64,000 bases of DNA. Origin: an uncultured Clostridia bacterium (GTDB lineage: Bacteria > Bacillota > Clostridia > Christensenellales > CAG-314). Below the pieces are notes generated by a model. It did no database searches. It had not been told where the DNA came from and was given only the letters and a program-made list of their open reading frames with translations. The DNA is taken from contig CANQNJ010000001.1 of assembly GCA_947625185.1 (NCBI GenBank), forward strand, positions 8,771-72,770, written 5' to 3'. Shown piece after piece: positions 11,129 through 49,188 of the stretch (positions within the stretch are counted from its first letter, which is position 1; each line of letters opens with the position of its first letter). The position numbers and the translations under genes were made by a program.

Positions 11129-13021
11129 TTATTTGTTTATTTGTTTGTTTGCTTGTTTTCGGACGATCATTGCTCGCATAGAGTTCAGTATCGCCAACAC
11201 GCACACGCCCACGTCTGCAAGAATGGCTACTATCATACCGAGTCCGTATGCAAGTTTGTCCAATATCCCCAATAGAGTCAATATCAATACGGCAATTTTG
11301 ATAGTAAGCGAAGCCGCGATGTTTTCGTTGACGATATTAAGCGTCTTTTTCGCGATGTGTTTGGCTGTGGCGATGGCGGTGGGGTTGTCCTGCATCAATA
11401 CCACGTCGGCGGTTTCGATAGCGGCGTCGCTGCCCATAGCACCCATGGCAATTCCGACGTCCGCCGAGGCAAGCACGGGCGCGTCGTTTATGCCGTCTCC
11501 GACAAACGCCACTCTCGACTTGTTGTTTTGTTTGAGCTTTTTGAGTTCTTCTACTTTGTTTTGAGGCAGCAATTCCGCGCGGTATTCGTCTATTCCGAGC
11601 GTTTCCGCTACTCGCCGCGCGGTAATAGCGTTGTCGCCGGTCAACATCACGGTGGTGCAGCCGTTGCGGTGCAGTTGAGATATGGCGTCCTCAGAGTCTT
11701 GTTTTAATTCGTCCTCGATCACGATATATCCCTTAAATATATTGTTTTGTGCGACATATACCACGGTGCCGCCGTCGACCGGGGGACATTCGATATGGTT
11801 GTCCTTCATCAACAGGGCGTTTCCGCACAGTATCGTCGATCCGTCCTCCGCTTGCGCGAGCAATCCTTTGCCCGCGATCTCCGATACGCTCGCTTTGAGC
11901 GGAGCGACGGTCTCTTTGGCAATGGAAACGGCAATCGGGTGATTGCTGTACTGCTCGGCAACGGCGGCAAGTTGCAATACTTGATCGCGTTGTTCGCGCG
12001 GATATACATCGGTTACGGCAAAGTTGCCTTTGGTGAGAGTTCCCGTTTTATCGAAAGCCACGACGTTTACTTTCGCAAGCAATTCCAGATAGTTGCTCCC
12101 CTTGACAAGTATTCCGCGTTTGCTTGCCGCGGCAATTCCTCCGAAGAAACCCAACGGCACGGAAATAACCAATGCGCACGGACACGAAACGAAGAGGAAC
12201 ATCATCGCGCGTTTGAGCCATATGCTCCAATATGCCCAATCTGCGTAGTTGCCCGTTACCAGCGGCGGCAGTATTCCGACCAATATTGCAAGACAAACCA
12301 CAACAGGAGTGTAGTATTTGCTGAACTTTGTGATAAAGTTCTCTGCGGGCGCCTTTTCGGATGAGGCGTTTTCCACCAGATCGAGTATCTTAGCCACGGT
12401 ACTGTCGTCGTATGTCCCCGTTGCGGTAATATACAGTACTCCGTCCAGATTGATACAGCCGGATATGACGGCGTCGCCTGCCCCTATATGCCTCGGCAGA
12501 CTTTCTCCCGTTATGGCAGAGGTGTCGAGATGGCATTCCCCTTCGGATACCGTGCCGTCAAGAGGTATTCTGTCTCCCGCTTTTACAACGAAAGTCTCGC
12601 CGACGGATATTTCGGACGGATGCAATACGATTTCCTCGTTGTTACGCAATACGGTGGCCTCTTCCGGACGAATATCCATCAACGCCGCGATATCCCTGCG
12701 GCTTTTGCCGACCGCGTACCGCTGAAATACTTCTCCTATCTGATACAGTATCATCACTGCGGCGGCATCGGCATATTCTCCTATCACAAATGCTCCGACA
12801 GTGGCGATAGTCATAAGAAAATTCTCGTCAAAAATTTTGCCATGGGCAATGTTGGCGACAGCTTTCCATAGTACGTCGTATCCCGCGACGAGATATGCCG
12901 CGGCAAACAGTCCAAGCTCGATCCACATATTGATGTGGATAGTGTATTTGAGTATCAGCGATACAACGACAACTCCGAGCGCCACGCCAATCCTTATCAA
13001 TGCTTTTTTATTTCTTGACAT
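11129..13021 (-). CDS. cadA: Cd/Zn/Co-type heavy-metal translocating P-type ATPase
   Basis: The SCPCALVISVP (CPC) motif, DKTGTLT and VGDGINDAP are present. The product is 630 aa. It lies in an operon with an HMA protein and an ArsR/CadC regulator. Confidence 0.9.
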   Translation of the reverse strand: MSRNKKALIRIGVALGVVVVSLILKYTIHINMWIELGLFAAAYLVAGYDVLWKAVANIAHGKIFDENFLMTIATVGAFVIGEYADAAAVMILYQIGEVFQRYAVGKSRRDIAALMDIRPEEATVLRNNEEIVLHPSEISVGETFVVKAGDRIPLDGTVSEGECHLDTSAITGESLPRHIGAGDAVISGCINLDGVLYITATGTYDDSTVAKILDLVENASSEKAPAENFITKFSKYYTPVVVCLAILVGILPPLVTGNYADWAYWSIWLKRAMMFLFVSCPCALVISVPLGFFGGIAAASKRGILVKGSNYLELLAKVNVVAFDKTGTLTKGNFAVTDVYPREQRDQVLQLAAVAEQYSNHPIAVSIAKETVAPLKASVSEIAGKGLLAQAEDGSTILCGNALLMKDNHIECPPVDGGTVVYVAQNNIFKGYIVIEDELKQDSEDAISQLHRNGCTTVMLTGDNAITARRVAETLGIDEYRAELLPQNKVEELKKLKQNNKSRVAFVGDGINDAPVLASADVGIAMGAMGSDAAIETADVVLMQDNPTAIATAKHIAKKTLNIVNENIAASLTIKIAVLILTLLGILDKLAYGLGMIVAILADVGVCVLAILNSMRAMIVRKQANKQINK

Positions 13022-13024
13022 AAC

Positions 13025-13243
13025 TCAGATTTTCAGTCTGCAATCCGGTTCGACTTTTTTGACCGTCGCCTTTATTTTTTGCAGAATTTCCGTATAGTTC
13101 TCATCGTCCAATTCCAACGTCATTTTTTGCAGCATAAAGTTTATATTGCAGTTTTTTACGCCCTCGATTTGCGCGATGTTTCGTTCCATTTTGGCTGCGC
13201 AGTTGGCGCAATCCAGATCTTCCATTGCAATTATCTTTTTCAT
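13025..13243 (-). CDS. Stand-alone heavy-metal-associated (HMA) domain protein
   Basis: The 72 aa product has MEDLDCANCAAKMERNI (CxxC), like the CadA N-terminal metal-binding domain. It ends 3 nt upstream of cadA. Confidence 0.8.
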   Translation of the reverse strand: MKKIIAMEDLDCANCAAKMERNIAQIEGVKNCNINFMLQKMTLELDDENYTEILQKIKATVKKVEPDCRLKI

Positions 13244-13246
13244 AAG

Positions 13247-13600
13247 TTACTCCTTTATATGTTCAAGCGCCAGATTGATTATGCTCAGCACGTGATCGTC
13301 GTCAAGACTGTAAAATATTTCTTTTCCGTTGCGCCTGTTTTTGACGAGTTTTGCCTGCCTGAGTATGCGCAGCTGGTGAGAAACTGCCGATTTGGTCATA
13401 TTGAGAACGGCGCCGATATCGCAAACGCACATTTCCGCTTGCGCAAGAGCCGACAATATCCGTATGCGCGTAGAATCGCCGAATATCTTAAAAAGCTCCG
13501 CAACGTCGTACAGCTCGTTTTCGTCCGGCATATCGACGGTTACTTGTTCGCATACCTCGTCGTGAATTTTGTTATCTTCGCAGATCAAATCCGAATCCAT
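13247..13600 (-). CDS. cadC: ArsR/SmtB-family metalloregulator (CadC-like)
   Basis: LFKIFGDSTRIRILSAL...MCVCDIGAVLNMTKSAVSHQLRIL shows a winged HTH with the CVC metal site. I prefer the ATG at 13600 (GGAG 7 nt upstream) over the TTG-initiated maximal ORF ending at 13642. Confidence 0.85.
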   Translation of the reverse strand: MDSDLICEDNKIHDEVCEQVTVDMPDENELYDVAELFKIFGDSTRIRILSALAQAEMCVCDIGAVLNMTKSAVSHQLRILRQAKLVKNRRNGKEIFYSLDDDHVLSIINLALEHIKE

Positions 13601-13621
13601 AATCTTCTCCTTTATTCGACA

Positions 13622-13647
13622 AACAGTTGAAGAATTGTTCAACTGTT
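13622..13647. promoter_or_regulatory. Candidate CadC/ArsR operator: perfect 10-bp inverted repeat
   Basis: AACAGTTGAA-gaattg-TTCAACTGTT lies about 22 nt upstream of the preferred cadC start. ArsR/SmtB repressors bind imperfect 12-2-12-type palindromes over their own promoters. Confidence 0.5.
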
Positions 13648-14521
13648 ATTATATTATTCCGCATTTTCGTAAAAGTCAAGCATTTTACCGCATATTGTTG
13701 AATATTTTTTCAAACGCCGGTCGCAGCGGTGCATAGCAGCGCGGCATCTGTTGGACAACATAGAACAAATTTATCGAGCATATACAGCCGGACAACGCAG
13801 TGCTTTTGTACTTGTGGCATAACAAAATATCTCAATACGAATAAATCTTGCCGAACGGGCGTGCAAGAAAATATCTGTCGCCGAGGATATCGAGAAAACT
13901 GTCTCCGTTTTGCGTAGCCCGACATTTTTGCATACAAAGCAGGTACGAACAGAGAAGGAGTAATGTAAAAAATTTGAAAACGAACGTCAGATCACACTGA
14001 TATAGGGAGAACAGTGCATCCTTGTATGCAAGCGATAAAACATTCCGAAAGAGAAAGACGATGCTAACGGCAGTTTTTATACGTTCGGTATCCCGTTCAC
14101 CTACTTTCTAATAAAAACAATAAATACATTTTCTATGGACGGTATAATGCTGAGAAAAGCAACTTCCGAAATTGAGAATTTCCGAAGTTTTTCCTTTTAC
14201 GCAATTAGCATAAGCAGGATTGTCGGTAAACGTGATATAGCTTGATCAAAAAATACCCTAAAAGTTTTGTTAACTTTTGGTATGGTGGTGGGGGCTACTA
14301 CTAAAAAAACAAAAGAATTTAGTAGCACGCTTTTGAAGATTATTATACTTTATTGCTGTAAATATTTATTTGAGTGTTTTTTTAAACTGCTAAATGGGAG
14401 TTATGGTTTATATTGTTGATGTTTCATATTTACACAGTAATTGATATTCGTTCTTTTTTTTGTACGGAACCGCTTCCGAGGTAATTTTTTTTCGCTCTTT
14501 TGAAAAATGACCGTTGAAACC

Positions 14522-14550
14522 TTGAAATATGATGCGGAATATGCTATAAT
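14522..14550 (+). promoter_or_regulatory. Near-consensus sigma-A-type promoter for the island operon
   Basis: TTGAAA (14522-14527), a 17-nt spacer, then TATAAT (14545-14550). It lies about 47 nt upstream of the first start codon. Confidence 0.55.
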
Positions 14551-14596
14551 AACAATAAAAAATGTTGTTTTTCGTTATTTTTCGAGTTTCGGAGAA

Positions 14597-15649
14597 ATGA
14601 AAATGAAACAAAGATTTGTTTTTATCAGTCATAGTAATCATCCGTCAGATGTGGATATCTGTGAGCGTCTCTATAAGTATCTCGGCGCTTGCGGTGTTTG
14701 TTGTTGGATGGATCGGGAAGATATGCATTCTGGAAGTTGGAAAGAACAGATCGTCGAAAAGCTTCTCGATGCCTCGGCGTTTATACTGGTAGAAAGTATA
14801 CATTCGCTACAATCTCCGCAGGTGAAAAAAGAAATCAATCTTATGACGTCGACGGAGCGCCCTCTTATTCCATTCGCTTTGGACGAATACTGCTTGTCCT
14901 TGGATAAGGAGAAGGGATCAGCTTTATATGAGCTTGGCGTTGGAGAATTACAGACGGTTTTCCTTAATAGATATCCGCAAGAGTCGTATGCATTCGAAAA
15001 GTTGCTTTCCTATCTCCCACCGGAAGTGATATGTTTTAAGAATGATCCTACGGAATTTCATTTTGATTCGGGTGGAAAGGTTTTGGAGAAATATGTCGGG
15101 CATGATTCCTTTGTTGAGATTCCGGGATTTGTACAAGCTATCGCCGACGGCGCTTTTCGAAATAATTCCGATCTTGTAACGGTTTATATCCCGGATTCAG
15201 TTGAAAGAATCGGTCGCAGAGCATTTTTGGGATGCAGCGCATTAAGTCGCGTTGATGGGATGCGGGGTATTATCGATGTGGATAACTCGGCGTTTAATTA
15301 TACAAATTTGGTATCCGGAGACGGAAAGCCGTTTGTTGTCAATGGAATATTATTTGGCAGTGCGTTGGCAAATGATGCCATACTTCCGTCGGCACGCATG
15401 ATTGCCTCGAATGCATTTTACGGATGTGAGGCGGAAGAGTTAATTTTCGCAGATGGGCTAATAAGTGTCGGCGAGGGGGCATTCATGGATTCTTTTCTGC
15501 GTCGCATTGTTTTTCCTGTAACTTTGAAGCGGATTGGAATGCGGGCATTTGCGTCATGCACGAGACTAAAAGAGGTTGTGTTTTTGGGACAAGTGCCCGA
15601 TAATGCTACATTAATTTTTGACCAAGAAAAAATAAAGGAGAAAAAATAA
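14597..15649 (+). CDS. TIR-domain protein fused to BspA-type leucine-rich repeats (LRR_5-like)
   Basis: GGAGAA precedes the ATG at 14597. The N-terminus FVFISHSNHPSDVDICERLYKYLGACGVCCWMDREDMHSGSWKEQIVEKLLDASAFILVESIHSLQSPQVKKE matches the bacterial TIR_2 pattern. The C-terminal half has repeated IPxxVxxIGxxAFxxCxxL units. No signal peptide or TM helix is evident. Confidence 0.75.
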   Translation: MKMKQRFVFISHSNHPSDVDICERLYKYLGACGVCCWMDREDMHSGSWKEQIVEKLLDASAFILVESIHSLQSPQVKKEINLMTSTERPLIPFALDEYCLSLDKEKGSALYELGVGELQTVFLNRYPQESYAFEKLLSYLPPEVICFKNDPTEFHFDSGGKVLEKYVGHDSFVEIPGFVQAIADGAFRNNSDLVTVYIPDSVERIGRRAFLGCSALSRVDGMRGIIDVDNSAFNYTNLVSGDGKPFVVNGILFGSALANDAILPSARMIASNAFYGCEAEELIFADGLISVGEGAFMDSFLRRIVFPVTLKRIGMRAFASCTRLKEVVFLGQVPDNATLIFDQEKIKEKK

Positions 15650-15650
15650 A

Positions 15651-18248
15651 ATGGCGGGAAAAAGAAACATAAACACTCAAGATTTCGAAAAATTTTTGAA
15701 TGAGATTATTAAGGGTATCGATGCGAGAGAAAATACGGAATGGGAGGAAAAGTCCACCAAAATTTCCGAAGATATTCGCTCCGCGCTCGTCCGGCAGTTT
15801 GATACGCTCAAAGGCGATTGTGATACGAGGTTTTTGGACTACTGTAATACAGTGAAAGCGCTCCTTGCCATTTACAATTTCGGTAATCTCAATGTCGATG
15901 AGAGTGAGAACGAGGTTGCGCAGTTGGACAGGCAGAGGATACTGACGGGGGTTTATAATATCATCAAGCATATTGAAGAGATTGGTTACGATATCACGCC
16001 GTATATTAGTTTAGGCGACTGCAAAACCATTTTTGGGACGGCAGATGGAAAAATTGAACCGCTTACTCTTTCTGCCACGACCGTTCTTACTACATTGATT
16101 TATTTTCGTCGGGCGTACAGTCGGAAAATGATAGCCTTTGAAGAGAGTGAGCTCACGGTTAATGGTGTCGATCTTATGCAAAAAACCGTGGAGCATGTTG
16201 CAAAGATTCTCGTCATGATTGTTGATTATATCGAGTCGATGGAATTCGTTGGGTGGGGGTTTACGTTTACATCGCGCGCGGCTACGTTGAACGACACCTA
16301 TTCAGTCGCTGAGGCACTCGGACGTTTCGAGGATGCATTCACGCAGGAAGATGAGATGAAACGCGATGAAGATTTTACCAATGAGGTGGATCGTTACGGC
16401 GAAATCATTTTGCATCATCAGGGACTCATTAATCGCGCGTTTAGTTCTATTTATAAGACGGCGTTCAATGTATATGACCGCGCAAAGACGGAATATGGAC
16501 ACAATATCTTTTATTCCGGTTCCGTGCGCGAAGGCGATTCGGTAAAGTATGTTTATACCAAAACGGATTATGACCAGATTGCAAGCAGTAATCGTTCGTC
16601 AGCACTCTTCAATCCCCTCTATGTCGCCATGATTACGATGTACGGATATAACGAGAAGGAAATCGTCATACGTTGTTTTATGGATAATTACGAGTTGGCG
16701 GCGAAATACTACGAACAATTCGAAACGGAACTTTCCGGCAAGAAAGAACGTCCAAAAAAGGCAAACGGTGATAAAAAAATCACGCTCAGCGAGTATGCCG
16801 CCGAACTGAAATACTTCGTGAAATATCAATGTGATTTTAACGAGGCGGTGAAACCACTTCTCGAAAAGCACCCGCTCATGTCGAACGATTATTCAGATAA
16901 TAAAAAGTGGAGAATGTGGTATGAAACTGCCCGCGTGTTTCAGAAATATCTTGAAACGCAGGAGCCTGAGCTTCTAATGAAAATCGCCGAATATCGCGAT
17001 TATCTTAACGCGACGAAGGATGCTATTGACCAAGTTCAGATCATGTTCCGCAATTTCGATAACAACCAGCGTCTCGGGATCGTCGATACCGATTATATAA
17101 TGTTTTCACAGCTCGATGTCAATACCGAACTCGTCAATATTTCCAAACTGAACAAAGCGAATATTGCGGTCAACTATCTTCGTCCAATGTTGCTCTCTTC
17201 AAAGATAATGATCGTGAATGCGCTTACGAAATATCCGCAATCGGATATTGAAAATCTGTTCAACTCTATTCTCGAAGCGAGATATCTTCAATTCGTCCCC
17301 GAAAAAAACAGTTGGGATTACGAATGGCTGTGGAATTCGGACGGCATAGATATGAACTCAACGGTTCGCAACTGTGAAGCGATAGCATATGATTACTTCG
17401 ATTATTATGAGAAATACGAGCTTGGACTTAGAGCAATCAATGGGATAAGAAGAAGCATTGGCAGCAATGTAATAAATGCAATCGACGTGGAAACAGGTGC
17501 ATTCTCTGTTGAGAAGGCAATGGGAACGGATAATAGTTTAATCAGTTTCAAACGCATTGTACTTGAAGTCACGCGCCAGAACGTCGATTTGATTCGTACG
17601 GTGTACAAGAGCAGGATTGACGAACTTCAAAAAAAGATCGACGGAATGGAAGAGGAACGGGCTCGCGATCTGGCAAATTATAAACAGAAAATGGAGGAGC
17701 AACGCGCGGACCTCCTTGAACAGAGGGATCAAACACTTGAAAAAATCGAGAACAGTCGGGCGATTGGCGATACCATCCGTAAGTGGATTCGTGAAGAAAC
17801 TAAGAGATATCTTACCGAAATGCTTTCGCAGATTGTCTTAAATAAGCTAAATGGTAACAATAAAGTTAAGAACGGCGAGTATCAACTTGATAGTCTTCTT
17901 GCAAGGAATGGCGGCGAATTTATTGACGCAAATATTCCGGCGATTCGCGCTTATGGTGATAACCTTCGTGCAAATATTACAGGAGATGATTCTTCCGAAG
18001 CGAGAGAATATTATCTTAAAACTTTCAAGGAATCTCTTGCACTTCAAGAGCTTTTCGAGTTAGCGTTTAACGGTATTTTCGACTTGGATGACGTAACGAG
18101 CATCCGCCATTATGACGACATGGTTGTGCCCATGTCCGTTAAAAACGAGGTTATCTCTAAGAATTACGCCGAACGTTTGGATGCGCGTAAACACGGAATT
18201 GAATATGAACCGTATATGGAAAAATCAAATGAAGAATTAAAAAAATAA
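15651..18248 (+). CDS. Large hypothetical protein (865 aa), mostly helical with a C-terminal coiled-coil segment
   Basis: The long clean ORF starts 1 nt after the TIR-LRR stop. I found no recognisable catalytic motif. A charged heptad-like stretch RIDELQKKIDGMEEERARDLANYKQKMEEQRADLLEQRDQTLEKIE is present. Confidence 0.7.
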   Translation: MAGKRNINTQDFEKFLNEIIKGIDARENTEWEEKSTKISEDIRSALVRQFDTLKGDCDTRFLDYCNTVKALLAIYNFGNLNVDESENEVAQLDRQRILTGVYNIIKHIEEIGYDITPYISLGDCKTIFGTADGKIEPLTLSATTVLTTLIYFRRAYSRKMIAFEESELTVNGVDLMQKTVEHVAKILVMIVDYIESMEFVGWGFTFTSRAATLNDTYSVAEALGRFEDAFTQEDEMKRDEDFTNEVDRYGEIILHHQGLINRAFSSIYKTAFNVYDRAKTEYGHNIFYSGSVREGDSVKYVYTKTDYDQIASSNRSSALFNPLYVAMITMYGYNEKEIVIRCFMDNYELAAKYYEQFETELSGKKERPKKANGDKKITLSEYAAELKYFVKYQCDFNEAVKPLLEKHPLMSNDYSDNKKWRMWYETARVFQKYLETQEPELLMKIAEYRDYLNATKDAIDQVQIMFRNFDNNQRLGIVDTDYIMFSQLDVNTELVNISKLNKANIAVNYLRPMLLSSKIMIVNALTKYPQSDIENLFNSILEARYLQFVPEKNSWDYEWLWNSDGIDMNSTVRNCEAIAYDYFDYYEKYELGLRAINGIRRSIGSNVINAIDVETGAFSVEKAMGTDNSLISFKRIVLEVTRQNVDLIRTVYKSRIDELQKKIDGMEEERARDLANYKQKMEEQRADLLEQRDQTLEKIENSRAIGDTIRKWIREETKRYLTEMLSQIVLNKLNGNNKVKNGEYQLDSLLARNGGEFIDANIPAIRAYGDNLRANITGDDSSEAREYYLKTFKESLALQELFELAFNGIFDLDDVTSIRHYDDMVVPMSVKNEVISKNYAERLDARKHGIEYEPYMEKSNEELKK

Positions 18249-18260
18249 AAGAGGATGCTT

Positions 18261-19250
18261 ATGAAAATTATCTCATTCAATTCTTATAAGGGTGGTGCTT
18301 GCAGAACGACCACATGTTACAATGCTTTGCCGTATCTTGCTAAGAAACTCGGAGCAACGGCACAGCAACCAATTCTCGTATTTGATATTGATCTTGACAG
18401 TATGGGTCTAACAAGTATTTTCCGCCCCAATTATGGACGACATTCCGAACGACTTGCTTATTCTTCTCGCAATCTGTTCGTCGATGATTTTGAAGAGTTC
18501 AATGAACGTTTAAGACGCGGGTTGGTTAGTTCAGTTAGTGATAAATATTTCAATGAGAAGAATTTTCAGCGTGTCGGCAACGACCTGGGGCTGGAAGATA
18601 ATGAAAGTGTGCTTTTTTGTGGAGCAGACGAAAATGCCGGAACTATTTCGGATGATGATTTTCGCAGTTTCAAGGAGAATTCCCCGTTGCAGACGCTCAT
18701 CATGGAATTAGAATCTTTTGATGAGGGAAATCAGCCTAAGGCGATCGTATTTGACTGTGCTTCGGGCGTCCAAATGTCCACGGTCACGACGTTCTCCTTT
18801 GTGCAGTGTGCAGTTGTATGTATGAGACCATCGCTCCAATTTCGATTGGGAACATATGACTACCTTCGTAATAAAATCCCTCGTGAGATTAAGAAAGCCA
18901 AAAACAATATGCGTCGCGAAATCATTCTCCTGCCTACTTCCGTTGCCGCCAACGTGGTCTCCGAGTCCGATCCGAACTATGCACGAGCTGTGGATGAACT
19001 CGACCGTTTGCGTAGTCGTACAAAAAACAGGATTGTAGACATTGTGGAAGATATTCAAAATGTTGATGAATGCATCCTGGGCTATACGCTCAATTCGGAG
19101 ATGGCGGAAGTTGACGACTTTGGACTTCCCGAAATCGAGCGCTTTAAATGGCAAGAATTTCTTCTTTATAAGGAGGAAGCGCTTACCGAAAAAGAGAAAC
19201 TTTTGAAGAAAAAATATGAACAGCTTGCAGAAATCCTTGCAAGAGATTGA
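18261..19250 (+). CDS. ParA/MinD-like (SIMIBI) protein with a degenerate Walker A
   Basis: KIISFNSYKGGACRTTTCYNALPYLA...ILVFDIDLDS...AIVFDCASG follows the ParA layout, but KGGxGKT is replaced by KGGACRT. The ATG at 18261 is better spaced from GAGGA (18251-18255) than the ATG at 18255. Confidence 0.65.
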   Translation: MKIISFNSYKGGACRTTTCYNALPYLAKKLGATAQQPILVFDIDLDSMGLTSIFRPNYGRHSERLAYSSRNLFVDDFEEFNERLRRGLVSSVSDKYFNEKNFQRVGNDLGLEDNESVLFCGADENAGTISDDDFRSFKENSPLQTLIMELESFDEGNQPKAIVFDCASGVQMSTVTTFSFVQCAVVCMRPSLQFRLGTYDYLRNKIPREIKKAKNNMRREIILLPTSVAANVVSESDPNYARAVDELDRLRSRTKNRIVDIVEDIQNVDECILGYTLNSEMAEVDDFGLPEIERFKWQEFLLYKEEALTEKEKLLKKKYEQLAEILARD

Positions 19251-19268
19251 GTTTTGAAGGAGAAAGAA

Positions 19269-21761
19269 ATGGAACAAAAGATTACCTGGAACAATGAATC
19301 CGAGGAAATAGATTTTTCAAATGACGAGACTGTCATGCAGCTTTTTCTCGATACCGTTCCCGATCCCGTAGCGCGTGCTATCCTTTTTGGCGTCAAAATA
19401 AACCAAAAACCGAACGTTAAGTTGTGCTCGACATACATTAACAGAGGTGGTATTATACGTGTCATGCGTTCGATTGTGAACCTTGCCTATACAATTGCTT
19501 TGACACGTTGGAGGCAATTGGACGCTGCTTCGGCGGATGAAGAGAAGAGTTGGGGCTATCCTGAGCATATTCGCGATTTTAAGGAGGCACGCTATTCAAA
19601 GCTTTTTCAAAGCGCGCTAGGGGATGAGGATATTACCCTCGATCTTCAAATTTTTTCTCTAATTGAGCTTTGGGTAGGGCTCAAAAAGGCTCGAAACCTT
19701 GTAAGCGGTCGTTTTGGATTACTCTTCAATCAGGCAATCGAGGGGGATGACATTGGTCTCACACTCCAACGCGTGCGTGATTTTATCCGTAATGCATCAT
19801 TTAAGCACAATGAATTAAATCCGAAGTATCCCAAAGAGGAGTGTAACAGGCTTTGCTATAAGCTGTTGGATGCTTTTATGATATTCCGAGCGATAAAGAT
19901 TGGTTATCCCGCCGATGTTCGTCTCGATGATGATGAGGATTTTTCCATTGAATACGATCTAAACCCGAAAGAACATAAAATTCTTTATCCAAATAAGTTT
20001 TCCAATGACAAGTTCATTGTCACGGAGGACCAATTGCGTCGTATGCAAGCGAGATTGGCAGGACAAGACGATACTGTCGAATCCTCTCCGCGCATTATGC
20101 TTTATATGCTCGCTGAGACCTCTGCGTTTAACGGAGAGATACAGCATATATATCGTTCTTTTGACGGGGAAAGCGAAGCGAGGATTCGTTCCAATGAAAT
20201 AAAAAATGACGTCTTTTCTTCCGGAAAAGATGTCCTTGATAATGATGAACTTCGGGAAACACGCAAATTTTTGACTTTTAATTATAAAAACTTGCGTGAC
20301 TTTGCGCTAGTTATCAGTGACGCTCTCAAAAATATGCCCCGTAAGCGCCAAGTCCTTTTTTCCATTTGTAAGCAACGCTTTCCAATGATCGTTGCCAATG
20401 TGCAACGGTACGATGCCTCGGATATTTATTGGGACAATATCGTTACGCTTATGCTAGTGGAGATGGGTTTCAGCGATTTTTTGGAGCAGATCTTAGACGA
20501 CGAATCTATTTTCTATAATATTATGAAAAATATCGGTTGGCGTTGTAGCGGCAGAGAGAGTGTTGAGCGCCTCAACCAATATGAACGAGAGGTGGCTGCA
20601 ATTGAACAGGATGCGAAACAAAGCAAACGTTCTTTGAATGCGAAATATATCCAACTTCGCGTATGCAAAGTGCTCCAAGCGATGAAGTTCATCGGAGATA
20701 ACGATGATGGCTTGCCTAATCCCTTCGAAGAGAACCTTACATCAAAATATGATAATATCTGTAATTGCCTTAATGTTCTGAAACAATATAAGGATGAGCG
20801 GGTAAATATCCATGAGTGTACAGTCGCCAAAAGGGCTTTGATTGAAATTTTCAGCAATACGTTCTGTTTCCTTCAAATCTTTTATAAGGGACTCGACAGC
20901 TATGCGAAGAAAAAAATCGATCTTATGGAAGAAAAACCTTCTTCCGGAATGTTGATGGTTCGTGGAGAAACGACAATGGGTGAGGACGATCATCAAGAAG
21001 AGGATAGCAAGAACAGTGAACGCGAATGGATTGGGAAATACCGCAAAGAATGTTTGGGAGCATTTAAAAGGGGCGCGAGAGAACAATATGAAAAGATCAA
21101 GAAAAATACTCTCAGTCAGCTCTATGATGGTTTTTGTGCGCTCTGCGGACAGTATAATAGTTTTGCCATGAACGGAAGTTTTAATATCAGTGAAGAGGCG
21201 CGTGATCTTAAATTCCTTATTACACGGAATTACATTTGCGATGTTTCTAAATTGAAATTTTTTGCAAGCATCAAACTCGCTAATGGTGAAGAATCGGATA
21301 TATTTCGGATGCTGGAAGGATTTTCTGACAAATATTATACGGATCCTTCTTATCTTGAATGGCTCGACTATTTTCGTGATTTCTTTTTGTTCCTTATTTA
21401 TAATGAAGATTACGACCGAAAGGGGTTGTGGAACGAGGATAATGGCAAGTTGAAAGATAAGGACTGTGATCCGATTTATCCTTACGTTGTCTCCTATTAC
21501 AGTGAAAATATCGACCGCGATCAGTTGAAAAAATGCACATACCGCGTTCCGATTCCGACGGAAAATTCAAACGACGGGGAGTCGAGCATAGTTGTTACTT
21601 TACTGACAGAAGAGAACTATCGTCCTGGAACTTATTTTTGCATTCCTCTTCGCTATGGTTCGAGTGAAAGCTGGTGGATTAATCCCTTTTTGATCCCTAC
21701 GCGTGTGATTGATGACATCGCGAATGAGATCAAAACAGAAAATAAAAAAATAGTTAGGTAA
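19269..21761 (+). CDS. Large hypothetical protein (about 830 aa) with an HEPN-like RNxxxxH motif
   Basis: AAGGAG at 19257-19262 is followed 6 nt later by the ATG at 19269. There is no recognisable enzymatic domain apart from LQRVRDFIRNASFKHNEL (R-x5-H) near residue 180. Confidence 0.65.
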   Translation: MEQKITWNNESEEIDFSNDETVMQLFLDTVPDPVARAILFGVKINQKPNVKLCSTYINRGGIIRVMRSIVNLAYTIALTRWRQLDAASADEEKSWGYPEHIRDFKEARYSKLFQSALGDEDITLDLQIFSLIELWVGLKKARNLVSGRFGLLFNQAIEGDDIGLTLQRVRDFIRNASFKHNELNPKYPKEECNRLCYKLLDAFMIFRAIKIGYPADVRLDDDEDFSIEYDLNPKEHKILYPNKFSNDKFIVTEDQLRRMQARLAGQDDTVESSPRIMLYMLAETSAFNGEIQHIYRSFDGESEARIRSNEIKNDVFSSGKDVLDNDELRETRKFLTFNYKNLRDFALVISDALKNMPRKRQVLFSICKQRFPMIVANVQRYDASDIYWDNIVTLMLVEMGFSDFLEQILDDESIFYNIMKNIGWRCSGRESVERLNQYEREVAAIEQDAKQSKRSLNAKYIQLRVCKVLQAMKFIGDNDDGLPNPFEENLTSKYDNICNCLNVLKQYKDERVNIHECTVAKRALIEIFSNTFCFLQIFYKGLDSYAKKKIDLMEEKPSSGMLMVRGETTMGEDDHQEEDSKNSEREWIGKYRKECLGAFKRGAREQYEKIKKNTLSQLYDGFCALCGQYNSFAMNGSFNISEEARDLKFLITRNYICDVSKLKFFASIKLANGEESDIFRMLEGFSDKYYTDPSYLEWLDYFRDFFLFLIYNEDYDRKGLWNEDNGKLKDKDCDPIYPYVVSYYSENIDRDQLKKCTYRVPIPTENSNDGESSIVVTLLTEENYRPGTYFCIPLRYGSSESWWINPFLIPTRVIDDIANEIKTENKKIVR

Positions 21762-21768
21762 ACATAAT

Positions 21769-22587
21769 ATGAACCATATTATGATCGACGCTTACCGAGG
21801 CAACGAAAGCCGTTTAGATGATATAAAGTCTGTGAACGCCACTCTTAATGAGATTGTACTCGCATTGCATTTGAATGCCGTGATGCCGCCTTTTCTTTTA
21901 CCGTACTATTACGCAAAAGATAGTGAGGACGACGGTATCAGTGCTTTCACTATATTGGAAGGCGGACATATCACTCTTCATACTTTTCCCAAGAGGGGAT
22001 GCGTTTTTGCGGATCTCCTCTATGATGGATATTACGACGAAGCTAAATTAAAAGGAATTCTAAAAACCGCTTTCAGGTGTGTTCCGGTGCCGGACGATCC
22101 GATCCGTACGGAAAGACGGTACCTTGATACGACTATTGACGAGTCACATGTTTGGAAAGGTGGTATGTCGGGAAAGGATTTCGGACCTCATACAATCGCA
22201 AAAATAGATAATGTCGATGTTACTTTGGAAGAGATTTTTGATTTGTTAGACAATATTCCGCGCGAAATCGGCATGTTGCCTATCAGTCGTCCTTATGTTG
22301 TGAAGTCTCATCTTGAAAATCCGACTTACTTTTCAGGTATTGTGCTGATCGCGCAAAGCCATATCGCATTTCATTACAGTGTGCAGGAACGGATATTATT
22401 CTGTGACGCATTTAGTTGCTCGTTTTATAAAAGTGAAAATTTTGTGGAATTTTTGAACCGCCGTTATGGTGATTTTCTGCATATGACAATTATTCGTGGC
22501 AGCAAACATGAGCAAATGATAGACAGCCGTGAATCAAAAGTGAAACAATTGAGCGGTTGGCTTGGTAATTTTAATAAGAGAGGATGA
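21769..22587 (+). CDS. Tandem S-adenosylmethionine-decarboxylase-fold (SpeH/SpeD-like, pyruvoyl-enzyme fold) protein
   Basis: Half 1, GISAFTILEGGHITLHTFPKRGCVFADLLYDG, aligns to the SpeH core [29 protein letters not shown] but lacks the Ser and Cys. Half 2, FSGIVLIAQSHIAFHYSVQERILFCDAFSCS, keeps both Ser and Cys. Confidence 0.65.
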   Translation: MNHIMIDAYRGNESRLDDIKSVNATLNEIVLALHLNAVMPPFLLPYYYAKDSEDDGISAFTILEGGHITLHTFPKRGCVFADLLYDGYYDEAKLKGILKTAFRCVPVPDDPIRTERRYLDTTIDESHVWKGGMSGKDFGPHTIAKIDNVDVTLEEIFDLLDNIPREIGMLPISRPYVVKSHLENPTYFSGIVLIAQSHIAFHYSVQERILFCDAFSCSFYKSENFVEFLNRRYGDFLHMTIIRGSKHEQMIDSRESKVKQLSGWLGNFNKRG

Positions 22588-22590
22588 ACA

Positions 22591-23670
22591 ATGGATTGTA
22601 AGCGATTGACCCAAATAAAAGCGGGCTTGTTGTGCTATGGTGTAAATGTCGATAAAAAGGTGGGCGAAGAACTTCTACGCTCCCGTCCGTATTTCTATGA
22701 TAAGGGATTTGTACACGCCGTCAATGCCAATATAGCAGGTAGCAACGTGTGTGTCAGCGTCGCCGAATGTTTTAGCGGGGTATCGCCATATCATCTTTAT
22801 GGCAAGGACGAAGAATTTTATATAAGAACAGAAGAGGATGAAAGGATCCCAATAAAACTGTTTGACGATCTGCCTAAGACAGGTACCGTGATCGACAATT
22901 TGGCGCGTCCTCATTCTGATTACGTGATCTCAATTTGGCCGTCACTTGTATGCTGTTTTGACAGACCGGGCGCCAAGTGCAAGTTTTGCAGCATCAAGCC
23001 GACGGGTAGTCAGACAGTTGTTCCGAGCAAAGAAGTAATTGAAGGGCTCCATGCCTTGTTTGCAATCACCGATAGATATTCGATCAATATCGGTGGTGGG
23101 ACATACGGGAGTCCTGACAGAATGGCAGATTATCTTACGGAAATCATAGCCGGTATTCGTACCTTTACCCAAACACCGATTTCGGTTGAATTGGCGCCAC
23201 CCGCTGATTTATATCGTATTGAAGCGTTGCGGTCGGCGGGTGCATCCTCGCTCATTATGAATTTGGAGATTGCGGATCCTGAGTTGCGCAAGAAAATCTG
23301 TCCGGGGAAATCCTCGATATCATATGATCATTATTACAAAAGTTACCGCGTTGCAGTCAATACATTCGGCAGAGGAAATGTTTCATGTGTGTTAATTGCC
23401 GGGTTACAGCCAAATGAAAATATCGTCTCAGAGTGCGAAAAATTGACCGACATTGGTGTGATCCCCACAGTCATACCATTTAAGGCGATGGATGACTGCG
23501 AATATCACGATAGGAACAACTGTTCTCCGGAAGATCTCCTTTGGATCAGCGCGCGGGTGGGGTCGATGCTTCGCCAAAAGGAACTTTCGCCCAAAATGCA
23601 GGAGGGGTGCACGAAATGCGGTGGGTGCTCCCTCGAAACAAATTATTACGAAATGTTATTTACAGCGTGA
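22591..23670 (+). CDS. Radical-SAM-like Fe-S protein (non-canonical Cys motif)
   Basis: CCFDRPGAKCKFCS shows C-x7/8-C-x2-C instead of C-x3-C-x2-C. A GGG segment INIGGGTYGS and a TIM-barrel-like alternation are present. A C-terminal CTKCGGCS (C-x2-C-x2-C) gives a second cluster motif. Confidence 0.5.
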   Translation: MDCKRLTQIKAGLLCYGVNVDKKVGEELLRSRPYFYDKGFVHAVNANIAGSNVCVSVAECFSGVSPYHLYGKDEEFYIRTEEDERIPIKLFDDLPKTGTVIDNLARPHSDYVISIWPSLVCCFDRPGAKCKFCSIKPTGSQTVVPSKEVIEGLHALFAITDRYSINIGGGTYGSPDRMADYLTEIIAGIRTFTQTPISVELAPPADLYRIEALRSAGASSLIMNLEIADPELRKKICPGKSSISYDHYYKSYRVAVNTFGRGNVSCVLIAGLQPNENIVSECEKLTDIGVIPTVIPFKAMDDCEYHDRNNCSPEDLLWISARVGSMLRQKELSPKMQEGCTKCGGCSLETNYYEMLFTA

Positions 23671-23673
23671 ATT

Positions 23674-25767
23674 ATGATTCTTTATGATAAGCGCGCAATG
23701 AATGATGTCTCTGTCGTCGGAGGTAAGGGGCTGGGACTCGCAAAGTTGATAAATTATGGTTGTGAAGTTCCGGATTTCTTTATTGTAACGGCGGGAACGG
23801 TTTTGGATGACAAATTTGCAGTGGAACTGATGGAGTTCGCCGCAAAATTGCAGTGTGACTCGTTTTGCGTGCGTTCAAGCAGCGTGTTCGAGGATAGCGT
23901 CGATAATAGTTTTGCAGGTCAATATTTAACTATTTCGAATGTTGGCATTAAAGATTTGCTCGATGCAATCGGGAAGGTGGCGGGTTCTGCCAATACGTCG
24001 ACTGTTGAATTGTATTCTCGTCACTTTCACATGCATCCTTGTGAAATCGCGATTATTGTTCAAAAGCAGATCGCGGGGAAGTATTCCGGTGTCGTATTTA
24101 CGCGCTCATTCTCTTCCGACGAGGAGATTGTGATTGAAAGCGTGGTGGGAAGCGGGGAATTGCTCGTTAGCGGCAGGGTAATTCCATCCAAGGTTGTCGT
24201 TCGTAAGGACTCATCGTATATGGATGTACCTTACGGTTCGGAACTTGTATGTAGTGCGATTAGGCTTGAAAAGGCGGAACGCTGTCCGCTTGATATCGAA
24301 TGGACTTATTCCGATAAACTTTATTTTTTGCAGATGCGGCCGATTACCGTATACGGGGATACATTACCGGAGATTCCGAAAAGAAATTGGAATTTTTATG
24401 TCTATCGGGATTTCTGTCCGCTTGTACACTCTGTGCAAGCCTGTGCTTCCGAGAAGGAAATCCAAGAGAGGCTTTTTGGCTTTTCGGTGCCTATTGCAGA
24501 AGGGATATTGGCGAATGGCAGAGAATTTTATTCCGAAGAAAACGATATTGCCGTTACTCAGATATGGAAAAAACTCGATAAGGACGATTTTTTTAAAAGG
24601 TATATAGGTAAAATCAAGGCGCAAGTATGGCGGACAAAACGATATGCAGACTGCATAAGAGAAAATGGTCGTGTTGGGCTTACGAGTACGCAACTTTTTT
24701 CGGCTTACAGAAAAGCGATTGAAAAATATATCGAGAGTTATGTTCCGCTTATGATGAGACCTGATGATTATCTGTTGGAGACAATGCGATCGATAGTGGG
24801 TGACGAAACAGAAGAAATTTTGGATGTTTTGACGCCTGTATGGAAGAAAACATTTTATTCCGATGAAAAAGCCGATTTTTTGCGGGCGAAGATAAGAAAC
24901 GATGCCGATGCTTACATTGAAAAATATGAATGGACTTGCGCTCCGCTCGGAAAAACGGTCAATCATATGACGAAAGAGAGCGTCGAACGGCGTTTTAGCA
25001 GGTTGACGATGGAGCAGGCGGAAGAGTCGCTTTGTTGTATAGAAGAAAAAAGGAACGAACGGAGGAAAAGGTTTTTTTCCTTATTGAAAGCAGAGAATTT
25101 GCCTAATGAACTGAGGCGGTTGTTTTTGCTGATTGCCGAGTTTATCTATCTACGCACTTATACGGCGGAAAACAGTGATCGCCTATTTTTCTATATTCGT
25201 GAAAATATTCTGTCTGCAATTGCGGAGCAAACGGGTGTTTCTCTTACGGAATTGTTATATATGACTTATGATGAAATTGCAGAGATGGAAAATGGTCATA
25301 AACCGAATCGTGGGACGATCGCAAAGCGCAAATGCGGAGAACTTATTCTTTTTTTCAATGGAAATCATCGTGCCTATTATGGAAATTCCGTTGGTTCTCT
25401 CCTTGCAGAATTAATGCCGTACGAGGAAACGGAAGAGACTGTCCTTTCGGGCGATATCGCATGCTCGGGTCAAGTCTGTGGACGCGTTTGCATCGTACGT
25501 GATTTTTGTGAAGTAGAAAAGGCAAAAGAAGGCGATATCATTGTGACTTCGATGACGACGCCGGAACTTGTTACCGCGCTTGAAAAGGCTAGCGGAATTA
25601 TTACGGACGAGGGCGGTATCACTTGCCACGCCGCAATTCTCTCTCGCGAGTTTGGGGTGCCTTGTCTTGTGGGTACTAAATTCGCAACTCGTGCGCTTCG
25701 CGATGGAATGAAAGTTCGGTTGGACTGCATTCACGGAAAGGTAGAAAAATTGTCAAATGATATTTGA
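23674..25767 (+). CDS. PEP-synthase/PPDK-like kinase: N-terminal ATP-grasp (PPDK_N) plus C-terminal phosphohistidine swivel domain, with no PEP/pyruvate TIM barrel
   Basis: VGGKGLGLAKL and FCVRSSSVFEDSVDNSFAGQYLTISNV give the PPDK_N signature. IVTSMTTPELVTALEKASGIITDEGGITCHAAILSREFGVPCLVG gives the mobile domain with the catalytic His. About 350 aa of uncharacterised middle region separates them. Confidence 0.8.
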   Translation: MILYDKRAMNDVSVVGGKGLGLAKLINYGCEVPDFFIVTAGTVLDDKFAVELMEFAAKLQCDSFCVRSSSVFEDSVDNSFAGQYLTISNVGIKDLLDAIGKVAGSANTSTVELYSRHFHMHPCEIAIIVQKQIAGKYSGVVFTRSFSSDEEIVIESVVGSGELLVSGRVIPSKVVVRKDSSYMDVPYGSELVCSAIRLEKAERCPLDIEWTYSDKLYFLQMRPITVYGDTLPEIPKRNWNFYVYRDFCPLVHSVQACASEKEIQERLFGFSVPIAEGILANGREFYSEENDIAVTQIWKKLDKDDFFKRYIGKIKAQVWRTKRYADCIRENGRVGLTSTQLFSAYRKAIEKYIESYVPLMMRPDDYLLETMRSIVGDETEEILDVLTPVWKKTFYSDEKADFLRAKIRNDADAYIEKYEWTCAPLGKTVNHMTKESVERRFSRLTMEQAEESLCCIEEKRNERRKRFFSLLKAENLPNELRRLFLLIAEFIYLRTYTAENSDRLFFYIRENILSAIAEQTGVSLTELLYMTYDEIAEMENGHKPNRGTIAKRKCGELILFFNGNHRAYYGNSVGSLLAELMPYEETEETVLSGDIACSGQVCGRVCIVRDFCEVEKAKEGDIIVTSMTTPELVTALEKASGIITDEGGITCHAAILSREFGVPCLVGTKFATRALRDGMKVRLDCIHGKVEKLSNDI

Positions 25768-25859
25768 GAAGATGTGTTTGATAGGATTAGGGCACGAAAA
25801 AAATCAGACCCAATGTCAAATACTGTGCTTTAAGTATTCCCCCCCCAGCATATAATACG

Positions 25860-26897
25860 TCAGCTGTGGGCGACGGGGTCGTAGCCGAGCAGGATATCCG
25901 CGACGCGATCGGTGCCGTAAAGGTCTCGTTGCGCGCGCTGTTTGGCGCGAATGGCTTCGCGGTTGTCGTAAGCGGCGTTGACGGCACGATACAGCTCGTC
26001 AGCGAGGTTGTCTTCGCTTACCGTCAGTCCGCAGCCTCGCTCGGTGAACCACTTGGCGTTCAGCGTCTGTTCGCCGCGCGACTGCTTGGTAAGCGGCACG
26101 GTAACGAAGGGTACTTGCGCAAGTGTCAGCTCTGCCAGGCTGTTGGCTCCCGCCCGAGTGAGACATACGTCCGCCGCGGCAAATACGTCGTTAATGTTGG
26201 AGATGAATTCCGCTTCCCGCACAAATTCGCACCCGATTCGTTTGTTCTTGCCGCATATTACAAAAATATTAAAGCGCTCCGCAAGTTTGGGACAGGCGGC
26301 GACGGCTTCGTTCAATGCTTTTGCGCCGAGACTTCCGCCTGTAACGAGCAGTATCGGCTTGTTCCCGTCAAAGCCCGTCGTGGCGAGCCCGCGTGCTTTG
26401 TCTCCGTGCATTATTCCTTCGCGTATTATTACGCCCACCGGTCGAGCTTTCGGATCGCACGGAAATGCGGCGAGATACGCGTCTGCAAATCGCGCCGACA
26501 GCTTGTTGGCAAGTCCCACGCTCATATCGCTCTCGTGTATCACGGTAGGAATGTGCAATTGTTTGCCCGCTATCGTCACAGGCAATCCGACGTAGCCGCC
26601 TTTGCTGAATATCACGTCGGGGCGTATGCGTTTCAGATGATTCTTAGCTTCGTTGACGCTTTTTGTCAGGCGGAAGGGCAGCAGCAGATTGGATAATGTC
26701 GCCTTTCGCTGCAATTTGTGGGCGGTGACGGTGCAATATTTTTTTATTTTCCCCTCATTGACGTATTTTTCCGTCAATTGTTTTTCCATTCCGTTTGTTC
26801 CGATGTAGTATATCTCGTTGCCTTGCAGCTTGTCGATGAGCGCCAGATTGGGCGTGACGTGTCCCGCGGTTCCGCCGCCCGTAAATACAATTCTCAT
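25860..26897 (-). CDS. murG: Undecaprenyldiphospho-muramoylpentapeptide beta-N-acetylglucosaminyltransferase MurG
   Basis: MRIVFTGGGTAGHVTPNLAL, GGSLGA and a C-terminal glycosyltransferase 28 pattern are present. I prefer the start at ATG 26897 over the 388 aa maximal ORF. Confidence 0.9.
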   Translation of the reverse strand: MRIVFTGGGTAGHVTPNLALIDKLQGNEIYYIGTNGMEKQLTEKYVNEGKIKKYCTVTAHKLQRKATLSNLLLPFRLTKSVNEAKNHLKRIRPDVIFSKGGYVGLPVTIAGKQLHIPTVIHESDMSVGLANKLSARFADAYLAAFPCDPKARPVGVIIREGIMHGDKARGLATTGFDGNKPILLVTGGSLGAKALNEAVAACPKLAERFNIFVICGKNKRIGCEFVREAEFISNINDVFAAADVCLTRAGANSLAELTLAQVPFVTVPLTKQSRGEQTLNAKWFTERGCGLTVSEDNLADELYRAVNAAYDNREAIRAKQRAQRDLYGTDRVADILLGYDPVAHS

Positions 26898-30523: not shown

Positions 30524-30536
30524 AGAGGTACGATAT

Positions 30537-41835: not shown

Positions 41836-42507
41836 TTATCCGACGTAACGGGCTTTAAGAGAATAAATCGGTGCGCCTTGCGCTCGGAACTTTGCCTCGT
41901 ATTCCGTTACGATGTTGTCTTTTCCGTCGGGCAGGTCGTAGCAGACGTCGTACACCTCAAAGCCGTATTGAGCAAAACTTTCCTGTGACCAGATAAAGAA
42001 ATCGCGATTGTCCGTCTTTTGCAGGATCACGCCGTCGTCTGCAAGTATCCGTCTGTAAATATCGAGAAAGTTTTTGCTTGTAAGCCGACGGTTGGCATAT
42101 GTTTTCTTGGGGAAAGGACAGCTGAAATTCAACGCGATCTCCTCCACCGAATGGGGCGGCAAATATCTGTCGAGATTTTCCGCGCGCACATTGAGAAATT
42201 TGAGATTATTCACTCCCGACAATGCGGCGTTTTCGCAGGCGACCACGATGACGTTGGAAAGTTTCTCTACGGCGATATAGTTTCTGTCGGGACGACGTTT
42301 TGCGCTTTCAATTGCCCAAGCGCCTTTGCCGCAGCCTATTTCGAGTACGATCGGTTGCGCGCAAGCGAACACTGCGTCGACGTCTATGCGATAAGCCGCC
42401 TTTTCTTCCTCCGTCAACAGGTAGTAGCCGTCTCCCTCGCGGGCAAGCAGCAGATCCGAGCATTGCGCTATACGCTCTTCAAGGTGTTTTTTCAGTCGCA
42501 TTCTCAT
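41836..42507 (-). CDS. trmB: tRNA (guanine-N7)-methyltransferase TrmB
   Basis: LEIGCGKGAW (SAM motif I) and the FSCPFPKK pattern are present. The 223 aa product runs from the ATG at 42507 (MRMRLKK). The upstream 270 codons of the tracked ORF are Arg/Ala-rich and overlap nadE, so they are not credible. Confidence 0.85.
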   Translation of the reverse strand: MRMRLKKHLEERIAQCSDLLLAREGDGYYLLTEEEKAAYRIDVDAVFACAQPIVLEIGCGKGAWAIESAKRRPDRNYIAVEKLSNVIVVACENAALSGVNNLKFLNVRAENLDRYLPPHSVEEIALNFSCPFPKKTYANRRLTSKNFLDIYRRILADDGVILQKTDNRDFFIWSQESFAQYGFEVYDVCYDLPDGKDNIVTEYEAKFRAQGAPIYSLKARYVG

Positions 42508-49113: not shown

Positions 49114-49188
49114 TGGCTCCCCGTGTTGGGTTTGAACCAACGACCCTCCGGTTAACAGCCGGATGCTCTGCCGCTGAGCTAACGAGGA
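49114..49188 (-). tRNA. tRNA-Asn (anticodon GTT), CCA encoded
   Basis: The reverse complement folds by hand into a full cloverleaf. Acceptor TCCTCGT/ACGGGGA, D arm GCTC-AGCGGCA-GAGC, anticodon arm TCCGG-CTGTTAA-CCGGA, variable loop GGGTC, T arm GTTGG-TTCAAAC-CCAAC, then G-CCA. Confidence 0.92.

Follow-up and report, generated by a model that had tools for sequence, protein, structure and literature searches.

Within a 64,000-nucleotide stretch of the genome of an uncultured Clostridia bacterium (Christensenellales, CAG-314; contig CANQNJ010000001.1, positions 8,771 to 72,770), hereafter the window, we analyzed the gene of an 865-amino-acid protein that we call X. Its open reading frame (ORF) starts with an ATG at position 15651, 1 nt past the TAA stop codon (ending at 15649) of a gene for a protein with a TIR domain and leucine-rich repeats (TIR-LRR), exactly where a first-pass annotation of the window had placed it. 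A Shine-Dalgarno–like AAGGAG box is found ~10 nt 5' of the start codon. X is the second of seven same-strand genes, which are separated by gaps of 1, 6, 3, 7, 3, and 3 nt and encode, in order, the TIR-LRR protein, X, a ParA/MinD-like ATPase (ParA-like), a second large protein (Y), an AdoMetDC-like decarboxylase, a radical SAM enzyme, and a PPDK-like phosphotransferase (Table 1). No hydrophobic segment of transmembrane grade was seen in any of the seven proteins.

Table 1 Features of the X cassette in the window, with the sequence identity of each protein in other genomes carrying the same cassette.
Feature	Positions	Strand	Description	Identity to window (%)
TIR-LRR gene	14507..15649	+	TIR_2 N-terminal, BspA-type LRR_5 C-terminal	31-55
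Promoter-like site TTGAAA-17-TGnTATAAT, extended TG	14522..14550	+	best sigma-70-like match in 13200-26200, 11/12	
X	15651..18248	+	first large putative subunit of the conserved X/ParA-like/Y core; ORF, family of 73 clusters, AlphaFold	33-52
X conserved core, residues ~60-600	15828..17450	+	mostly helical, confidently folded; conservation islands, pLDDT mostly >90	
X long charged helix, residues 631-733	17541..17849	+	DSSP helix, pLDDT ~54-82; sequence poorly conserved	
X variable C-terminal helical bundle, residues 746-847	17886..18191	+	helices 746-755, 763-777, 781-806, 813-820, 828-847	
ParA/MinD-like ATPase, 331 aa	18255..19250	+	variant Walker A SYKGGACRTT; NCBIfam NF047398	40-56
Y, 835 aa, no assigned family	19254..21761	+	second large putative core subunit; 77 homologous clusters	32-49
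Fused double AdoMet_dc-fold decarboxylase-like protein, 272 aa	21769..22587	+	Pfam AdoMet_dc E 4.9e-21, two stretches	52-74
Variant radical SAM enzyme	22591..23670	+	NF045502 variant_rSAM 144 bits vs cut-off 125; TIGR04043 163 bits, below cut-off	65-78 (most conserved)
PPDK_N (ATP-grasp) + PEP-utilizers (swivelling His) phosphotransferase, 697 aa	23674..25767	+	PPDK_N E 2.4e-35, PEP-utilizers E 1.3e-23	33-59

The first-pass annotation had described X as an orphan without a recognizable motif. Nothing credible was indeed found for X in Pfam, NCBIfam, PADLOC, PHROGs, or the PDB sequences. The sole Pfam match was a sub-threshold one to the coiled-coil family SecA_SW (20.5 bits against a cut-off of 26.7), the PADLOC models gave 0 matches at E <= 0.1, and searches of the PDB sequences with X alone and with a 67-sequence profile returned only coiled-coil noise, with nothing in the conserved core. 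When 44 diverse family members were scanned singly against Pfam and PADLOC, no family recurred, and no PADLOC model was matched by more than two of them (best E 8e-4). The P-loop pattern [AG]xxxxGK[ST], whose absence had been claimed, was not found in X by a motif scan. X also matched no NTPase family in Pfam, NCBIfam, or PADLOC, and thus showed no STAND-type P-loop NTPase domain of the kind expected for Avs and bNACHT.

The term orphan had to be abandoned. A word-indexed search of 5.8 billion proteins recovered X homologues that group, at 90% identity, into 73 clusters, the majority spanning the full length (830–930 aa) with 32–84% identity to X. No cluster carries a Pfam domain or a telling name, and their sources are, without exception, uncultured gut Clostridia or (gut) metagenomes. 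An exhaustive phmmer run over 1.84 billion representatives listed 72 representatives at 50% identity, of which ~40 are remote relatives of ~500–920 aa (mostly 600–770 aa) that align with X only over residues ~90–340 and ~447–595. A profile search with a broad alignment (A2) returned the close X family alone and did not extend it further. X was not found in phage records, plasmid records, or IMG/VR contigs, so that an origin on a known mobile element is not supported.

Conservation within the family is concentrated in the N-terminal two thirds of X. In the 67-sequence alignment (A1), conserved islands cover residues 201–230, 301–345, 426–530, and 555–590, with the core motifs GWGFT (201–205), SSALFNPLY (316–324), VDTDY (478–482), LNK (500–502), KYPQ (527–530), WLWN (559–562), and YDYFDYYxxYE (580–590). 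The two aromatic segments quoted by the first-pass annotation, VGWGFTF and WDYEWLWNSDG, are present and begin at residues 200 and 555. The core (residues ~60–600) is the sole part that X has in common with its remote relatives. Residues 600–865 are poorly conserved, and the C-terminal third is the least conserved part of the protein. In the C-terminal bundle (746–847), the commonest residue has a mean frequency of ~0.35, and the alignments of the shorter remote relatives stop before it. At the other end, many X proteins start with a short disordered Lys/Arg-rich tail (2–4 K/R in the first 15 residues, with none in several members), which we take to be reminiscent of ParA-activating peptides.

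In the X superfamily, for which the alignment at 18% identity is imperfect, most of the positions that are kept hold Gly, Trp, Tyr, Phe, Leu, or Pro. Polar residues survive superfamily-wide at few sites (N321 and E590, with D228, D239, D567, and D581 kept partly), and the close-family invariants D215, S317, R467, and D481 are replaced in remote members. Because mostly the former residues survive while polar invariants of the close family are replaced, this pattern is better explained by a module with a structural or binding role than by an active site under conservation.

An AlphaFold2 model of X built with alignment A1 had a mean predicted local distance difference test score (pLDDT) of 82.3 and a predicted template modeling score of 0.69, with pLDDT mostly above 90 at residues 30–600. 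The model is 68% helix and 6% strand (DSSP), with three beta-hairpins and a C-terminal helical bundle, in agreement with the proposal that X is largely helical. The charged coiled coil that had been expected near residues 660–720 corresponds to a single predicted helix spanning residues 631–733; D, E, K, and R make up 46% of residues 650–725, compared with 29% of the whole protein. The AlphaFold and Foldseek analysis proposed in the first-pass annotation thus gave a confident model and no significant structural relative in the PDB or among viral models: nothing was found among 350,542 PDB chains at E <= 0.001 (best E 0.03), and no significant match was found in the BFVD models.

To place X in its genomic setting, we scanned one genome per species (185,579 species) by pattern search. 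This yielded 14 loci, a lower bound given the pattern-limited scan, all in metagenome-assembled genomes of Clostridia (Christensenellaceae, Candidatus Coproplasma, and unclassified Clostridiales). All 13 loci that were not cut by a contig end at the X side had the same gene order as far as the sequence extends, and nine carried all seven genes in the arrangement of the window. At one locus (L023), the PPDK-like gene is located upstream on the opposite strand. In most loci, the TIR-LRR stop and the X start are at most 6 nt apart or overlap; independent gene calls reproduced this coupling in four of five loci, with a gap of 16 nt in the fifth (L032), and the remaining loci were read from our own ORF calls. 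The genomic context of the cassette differs between genomes, as expected for a mobile island. X, Y, and the TIR-LRR protein evolve faster (31–55% identity to the window) than the radical SAM enzyme and the decarboxylase.

Two accessory families are located beside some of these cassettes, one of ~725 aa with a hydrophobic N-terminus (seven loci) and one of ~750 aa with a RyR domain (five loci). They were found among loci L002, L004, L011, L013, L014, L017, L019, L030, and L032, in varying positions and orientations. Neither family, nor the DUF4231/SLATT gene of L030, is present in the window, where tblastn with the RyR-domain and membrane protein genes of the sister loci found no trace of them.

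Remote relatives of X, ParA-like, and Y (X', ParA', and Y') were found in three further architectures. If the window arrangement (TIR-LRR, X, ParA-like, Y, decarboxylase, radical SAM, PPDK-like) is called type A, type B (L006, L007, and L025–L029) consists of a PAD_porph or Arginase gene followed by X', ParA', Y', a decarboxylase', and a protein of ~500–576 aa. Type C (L010) has TIR, X', ParA', Y', and decarboxylase', and type D (L033–L037 and, in part, L009) has TIR, a PapB-like SPASM radical SAM protein, X', ParA', a 123-aa protein, and Y'. The X/ParA-like/Y trio is invariant across the four architectures, and its partners change. Three architectures include the decarboxylase. TIR genes are found in every architecture at some, but not all, of its loci (in type B, directly upstream at L028 and L029), which strengthens the link between X and TIR that the first-pass annotation had drawn from the window.

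The head gene of type B cassettes is either agmatine-deiminase-like (PAD_porph, E 2e-89; TIGR03380 aguA, 292 bits, below the equivalog cut-off) or agmatinase-like (Arginase, E 5e-64; TIGR01230, 168.7 bits against a cut-off of 174.3). Thus, two non-homologous enzymes for the same guanidino substrate occupy the position ahead of X'. Because these two agmatine-type hydrolases share one position, a working metabolite of the system may be what the decarboxylase produces or a related guanidino amine. The ~500–576-aa protein after the type B decarboxylase is conserved and has no match in Pfam, NCBIfam, or the PDB. Directly downstream of the arginase-type cassette at L007 (positions 12441–16263 of that locus), we also observed a Tpt1/KptA-like gene, an 845-aa KAP NTPase, and an 842-aa protein with a faint adenosine-deaminase match, a RADAR-like pairing.

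The ATPase encoded between X and Y resembles the NCBIfam family NF047398, "KGGVGR-motif variant AAA ATPase" (E 8.6e-12, 45.8 bits, below the cut-off of 90). Its P-loop departs from the deviant Walker A pattern KGGxxK[ST]: in all 13 divergent homologues, the P-loop Lys is replaced by an invariant Arg (R17), while the signature Lys is kept. Invariant in these homologues are SYKGGxxR[ST][ST] (K12, G13, G14, R17), D44xD46xxSxG, and D167, which we assign to the expected Walker B position. The nucleotide pocket is predicted to be maintained, because the KGG, the DxD, and the Asp at the Walker B position are invariant.

Like X, the Y protein belongs to a family of its own, with 77 homologous clusters and no Pfam domain. 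Its AlphaFold model had a pLDDT of 79.7, and Foldseek found nothing in the PDB at E <= 0.001. The possibility that X and Y are paralogues was rejected by BLASTP and hhalign (probability 0.7%). Invariant residues of Y cluster toward the C-terminus (DCDPIYPY, CxYRVP, and WWINP). The annotated start of Y is a TTG; M6 (ATG at 19269) is nearly invariant among homologues and is likely the true start.

The decarboxylase-like protein, which is of the pyruvoyl type, is a fused pseudo-dimer. Its first half has GGHxTxHTF and no Ser. The second half has the invariant pattern IAQSH...H...FSCS (S197, H202, and C217), with Gln rather than Glu before the Ser. The His is located five residues and the Cys 20 residues past the Ser, a spacing that presumably matches that of the catalytic Ser, His, and Cys in prokaryotic AdoMetDC. 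The translation of the radical SAM enzyme reads CCx7CxxC at the cluster motif, which is non-canonical. The PPDK-like protein resembles PEP synthase, rifampicin phosphotransferase, and PigC, with NCBIfam matches far under the equivalog cut-offs.

The TIR-LRR protein matched TIR_2 (E 1.9e-15) and LRR_5 (E 2.1e-24) in Pfam. Its PADLOC matches were weak TIR matches (ThsB1, E 0.0057, 14 bits), and the protein appears to carry a generic TIR domain rather than a clear ThsB. The mechanically called ORF has 380 aa, compared with 345–360 aa in the gene calls of homologues and 348 aa on an identical contig (L001). The true start is probably M33 at 14603, because the homologues and the identical-contig call are shorter and a promoter-like site falls inside the 380-aa ORF. 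This site could be the operon promoter, a lead only, as the total of promoter-like sites in the region did not exceed the shuffled expectation.

The cassette forms a low-GC island in the window, with a GC content of 0.40–0.45 in the 14–26 kb block and ~0.50 in the flanks. It is bordered by a small helix-turn-helix (HTH)-type repressor gene with a P-type ATPase operon and, on the other side, by a MurG-like gene. The ~860 nt upstream of the cassette (13643–14506) contained no credible ORF, no precursor-peptide ORF, and no Rfam match; the Rfam scan of the window found a single tRNA (49117–49188). Further away are ParE/GyrB-like and ParC/GyrA-like genes (28562–33026), with Era, RecO, and ABC exporter genes upstream, and an SbcD/SbcC nuclease-ATPase pair (44873–48912). 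With ordinary chromosomal genes such as SbcD/SbcC, ParE/ParC-like, Era, and RecO around it, the cassette is inserted among housekeeping genes. About 17 kb from the cassette, a 708-aa ORF on the reverse strand (42504–44630) joins an HTH_3 domain, at the N-terminus, to CN_hydrolase and NAD_synthase domains; its product would be an NAD+ synthetase that depends on glutamine and carries a DNA-binding domain.

We compared the cassette with known systems. Like Thoeris, TIR-STAND/Avs, and SPARTA, it has a TIR protein in a compact, apparently mobile operon with large partners that would be non-catalytic, and some sister loci adjoin RyR-domain and SLATT/DUF4231 membrane proteins. The SLATT family has been named as a SMODS/SLOG-associated effector. 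Unlike Thoeris, SPARTA, and Avs, the window has no ThsA (SIR2/SLOG or macro), Argonaute, or STAND NTPase, and no PADLOC model was matched by X or Y. The seven cassette proteins gave no match to a ThsA model or to the domains by which a Thoeris effector would be recognized (SIR2, SLOG, or macro). We know of no TIR system with a decarboxylase, a radical SAM enzyme, and a PPDK-like enzyme, and our literature searches found no description of the cassette or of its combination of TIR and enzymes. Two further systems were considered and found to be unrelated: HEC-07, in which an AdoMetDC-like domain is joined to RelE, and the radical SAM system Ophion.

A parallel in organization is offered by the NTPase-centered ternary conflict systems (vWA-MoxR-VMAP and related) described by Kaur, Burroughs, Iyer & Aravind 2020 (PMC7159879), in which predicted-inactive MinD/ParA-like domains have been recruited into conflict systems. 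Like these, the cassette has an invariant NTPase-bearing core and swappable effector enzymes, including TIR. The core itself differs: it is X/ParA-like/Y, with no vWA, MoxR, VMAP, or HSP70. The main text of PMC7159879 mentions no deiminase or arginase, and a decarboxylase only in connection with an unrelated lysine decarboxylase complex. Overall, the cassette would work like the TIR-associated, NTPase-centered multigene conflict systems and appears to be a member of none of them, because it shows neither the Thoeris effector features nor a STAND sensor and matches no PADLOC model.

Taken together, we tentatively favor a reading that we hold to be somewhat short of probable: a nucleotide-switched core of X, ParA-like, and Y would control TIR and metabolite-modifying enzymes within a mobile conflict system, and X would serve this core as a sensor or scaffold subunit without catalytic activity. 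The ParA-like ATPase would act as a nucleotide-dependent dimerization switch whose partners would be Y and the soluble, mostly helical X. The conserved N-terminal core of X (~60–600) would mediate assembly, and the fast-evolving C-terminal helix and bundle (~600–865) would be the variable part, possibly for target sensing or effector docking. The complex would control the enzymes encoded around it, namely the TIR-LRR protein (NAD+-consuming or signal-making), the decarboxylase, the radical SAM enzyme, and the PPDK-like enzyme, and the whole cassette would be a horizontally mobile, anti-phage–type conflict system of gut Clostridia. This reading is supported by the recurrence of TIR, the swapping of partners around an NTPase core, the low-GC island, the patchy distribution, and the fast evolution of X, Y, and the TIR-LRR protein. 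The first-pass proposal of a large uncharacterized protein beside TIR in a probable unexplored defense locus thus gained from the strict synteny, the low GC content, and the varied genomic contexts.

The defense role itself would be a case of guilt by association. Defense-type neighbors were found at L002 (restriction-modification genes, PLD, and a second TIR gene), L007 (KAP NTPase, a deaminase-like gene with a faint match, and Tpt1), and L030 (SLATT/DUF4231 and RyR-domain proteins). Several points weigh against the conflict-system reading. Such recognizable defense genes are present beside some loci only, most flanks are housekeeping, and the cassette in the window is flanked by housekeeping genes; moreover, the cassette matches no model in PADLOC-DB v2. 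The enzyme set (decarboxylase, radical SAM, ATP-grasp phosphotransferase, and agmatine-type hydrolases) looks as biosynthetic as immune. Finally, the close X family has many invariant polar residues (R153, R154, D215, T216, D239, R315, S317, D479, D481, N501, K502, N562, D581, and E590), which could form an active site.

The last two points lead to the alternative that survives best, although we consider it distinctly unlikely: the cassette would be a pathway for the biosynthesis or modification of a small molecule or peptide (SAM, arginine/agmatine, or RiPP-like, that is, related to ribosomally synthesized and post-translationally modified peptides), with X as a novel enzyme or substrate-binding chaperone. 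Four to five enzymes are encoded, including the decarboxylase with its intact S197/H202/C217 half-site, the radical SAM enzyme, and the PPDK/PigC-like protein, and one remote type has a PapB-like SPASM peptide maturase. The remote cassettes pair an AdoMetDC-fold protein with an AguA-like or agmatinase-like gene, as in arginine/agmatine polyamine metabolism. Some enzymes of the AdoMetDC fold decarboxylate arginine (Giles & Graham 2008, cited by PMC8503589), and the route from arginine through agmatine to putrescine (PMC8503589) is mirrored by the type B enzymes. Unlike in polyamine pathways, however, the window has TIR-LRR at the hydrolase position, X, ParA-like, and Y have no counterpart there, and no genes for spermidine synthase or N-carbamoylputrescine amidohydrolase were seen in the loci examined. 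The cassette also has no conserved transporter, regulator, or precursor-peptide ORF, and a ParA-like switch ATPase with two fast-evolving proteins of ~800 aa is not what one would usually expect in a biosynthetic cluster. The polar invariants of X, which would favor an enzyme, are lost in remote relatives. The recurrence of TIR in all four architectures is a further point against a biosynthetic pathway; to our knowledge, TIR domains have no biosynthetic role.

It is quite improbable that the N-terminal core of X is a diverged (alpha/alpha) toroid catalytic domain (terpene cyclase, LanC, or GH8-like) acting on the product of its neighbors. An alpha/alpha-repeat or toroid scaffold had been proposed in the first-pass annotation, and the model indeed has ~12 long helices between residues 60 and 610. 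The segments GWGFT...LNDTYxVxEAL and WLWN...T...EAI would, as we read them, resemble the loop and inner-helix signatures of toroid repeats, and the weak Foldseek matches included the (alpha/alpha)6 barrels GH8 Rex8A (probability 0.57) and linalool dehydratase (0.38). Nevertheless, the TM-scores of these matches were at most 0.27 even when normalized by the target, and neither they nor any other PDB chain reached the significance level given above. No internal repeat was detected (off-diagonal probability of <=0.2% in hhalign of X against itself), toroid families were absent among the 25 most frequent Pfam matches of 44 X members at E <= 1, and the profile search of the PDB sequences was empty in the core. 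The toroid proposal was therefore not upheld.

Least plausible, and in our view hardly to be expected, is that X and Y are cargo or adaptors of a ParA-type positioning system for a metabolic enzyme body (an analogue of PomX/PomY-PomZ or McdB-McdA) with no conflict role: as in PomXYZ and McdAB, a ParA/MinD-family ATPase is always encoded between two large proteins, one of which, X, has a very long charged helix (~100 residues), and many X N-termini bear the basic tail, but this tail is not conserved and some members have no K/R in the first 15 residues, X and Y have no sequence or fold similarity to those partners, the P-loop Lys is Arg in every homologue examined (similar domains have been predicted to lack activity in conflict systems; PMC7159879), and the cassette is rare, patchy, and island-like in distribution and associated with TIR and metabolic enzymes.

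The preferred reading, X as a sensor or scaffold subunit of a switch-controlled core, has a bolder extension that we regard as possible and yet unlikely. X, the ParA-like ATPase, and Y would form a previously undescribed type of immune sensor-switch complex, containing two folds without a solved relative, that licenses TIR together with a trio of SAM- or arginine-directed enzymes. It would represent a new defense class coupling NAD+ chemistry with the synthesis or depletion of polyamine-type or SAM-derived metabolites.

Should the cassette turn out to have no immune role, the X and Y families are still worthwhile targets for structural and functional work, because they are confidently folded and have no solved homologues. 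If it is a defense system, it would have a new core machine, made of two proteins of ~850 aa without a detectable relative and a ParA-like switch with a Lys-to-Arg change, and would represent a new use of a trio of pyruvoyl decarboxylase, radical SAM, and PPDK-like enzymes alongside TIR. The series of variants, in which agmatine-type hydrolases replace TIR at the head of the cassette, would then hint at an immunity of gut Clostridia based on metabolites such as arginine, agmatine, and SAM.

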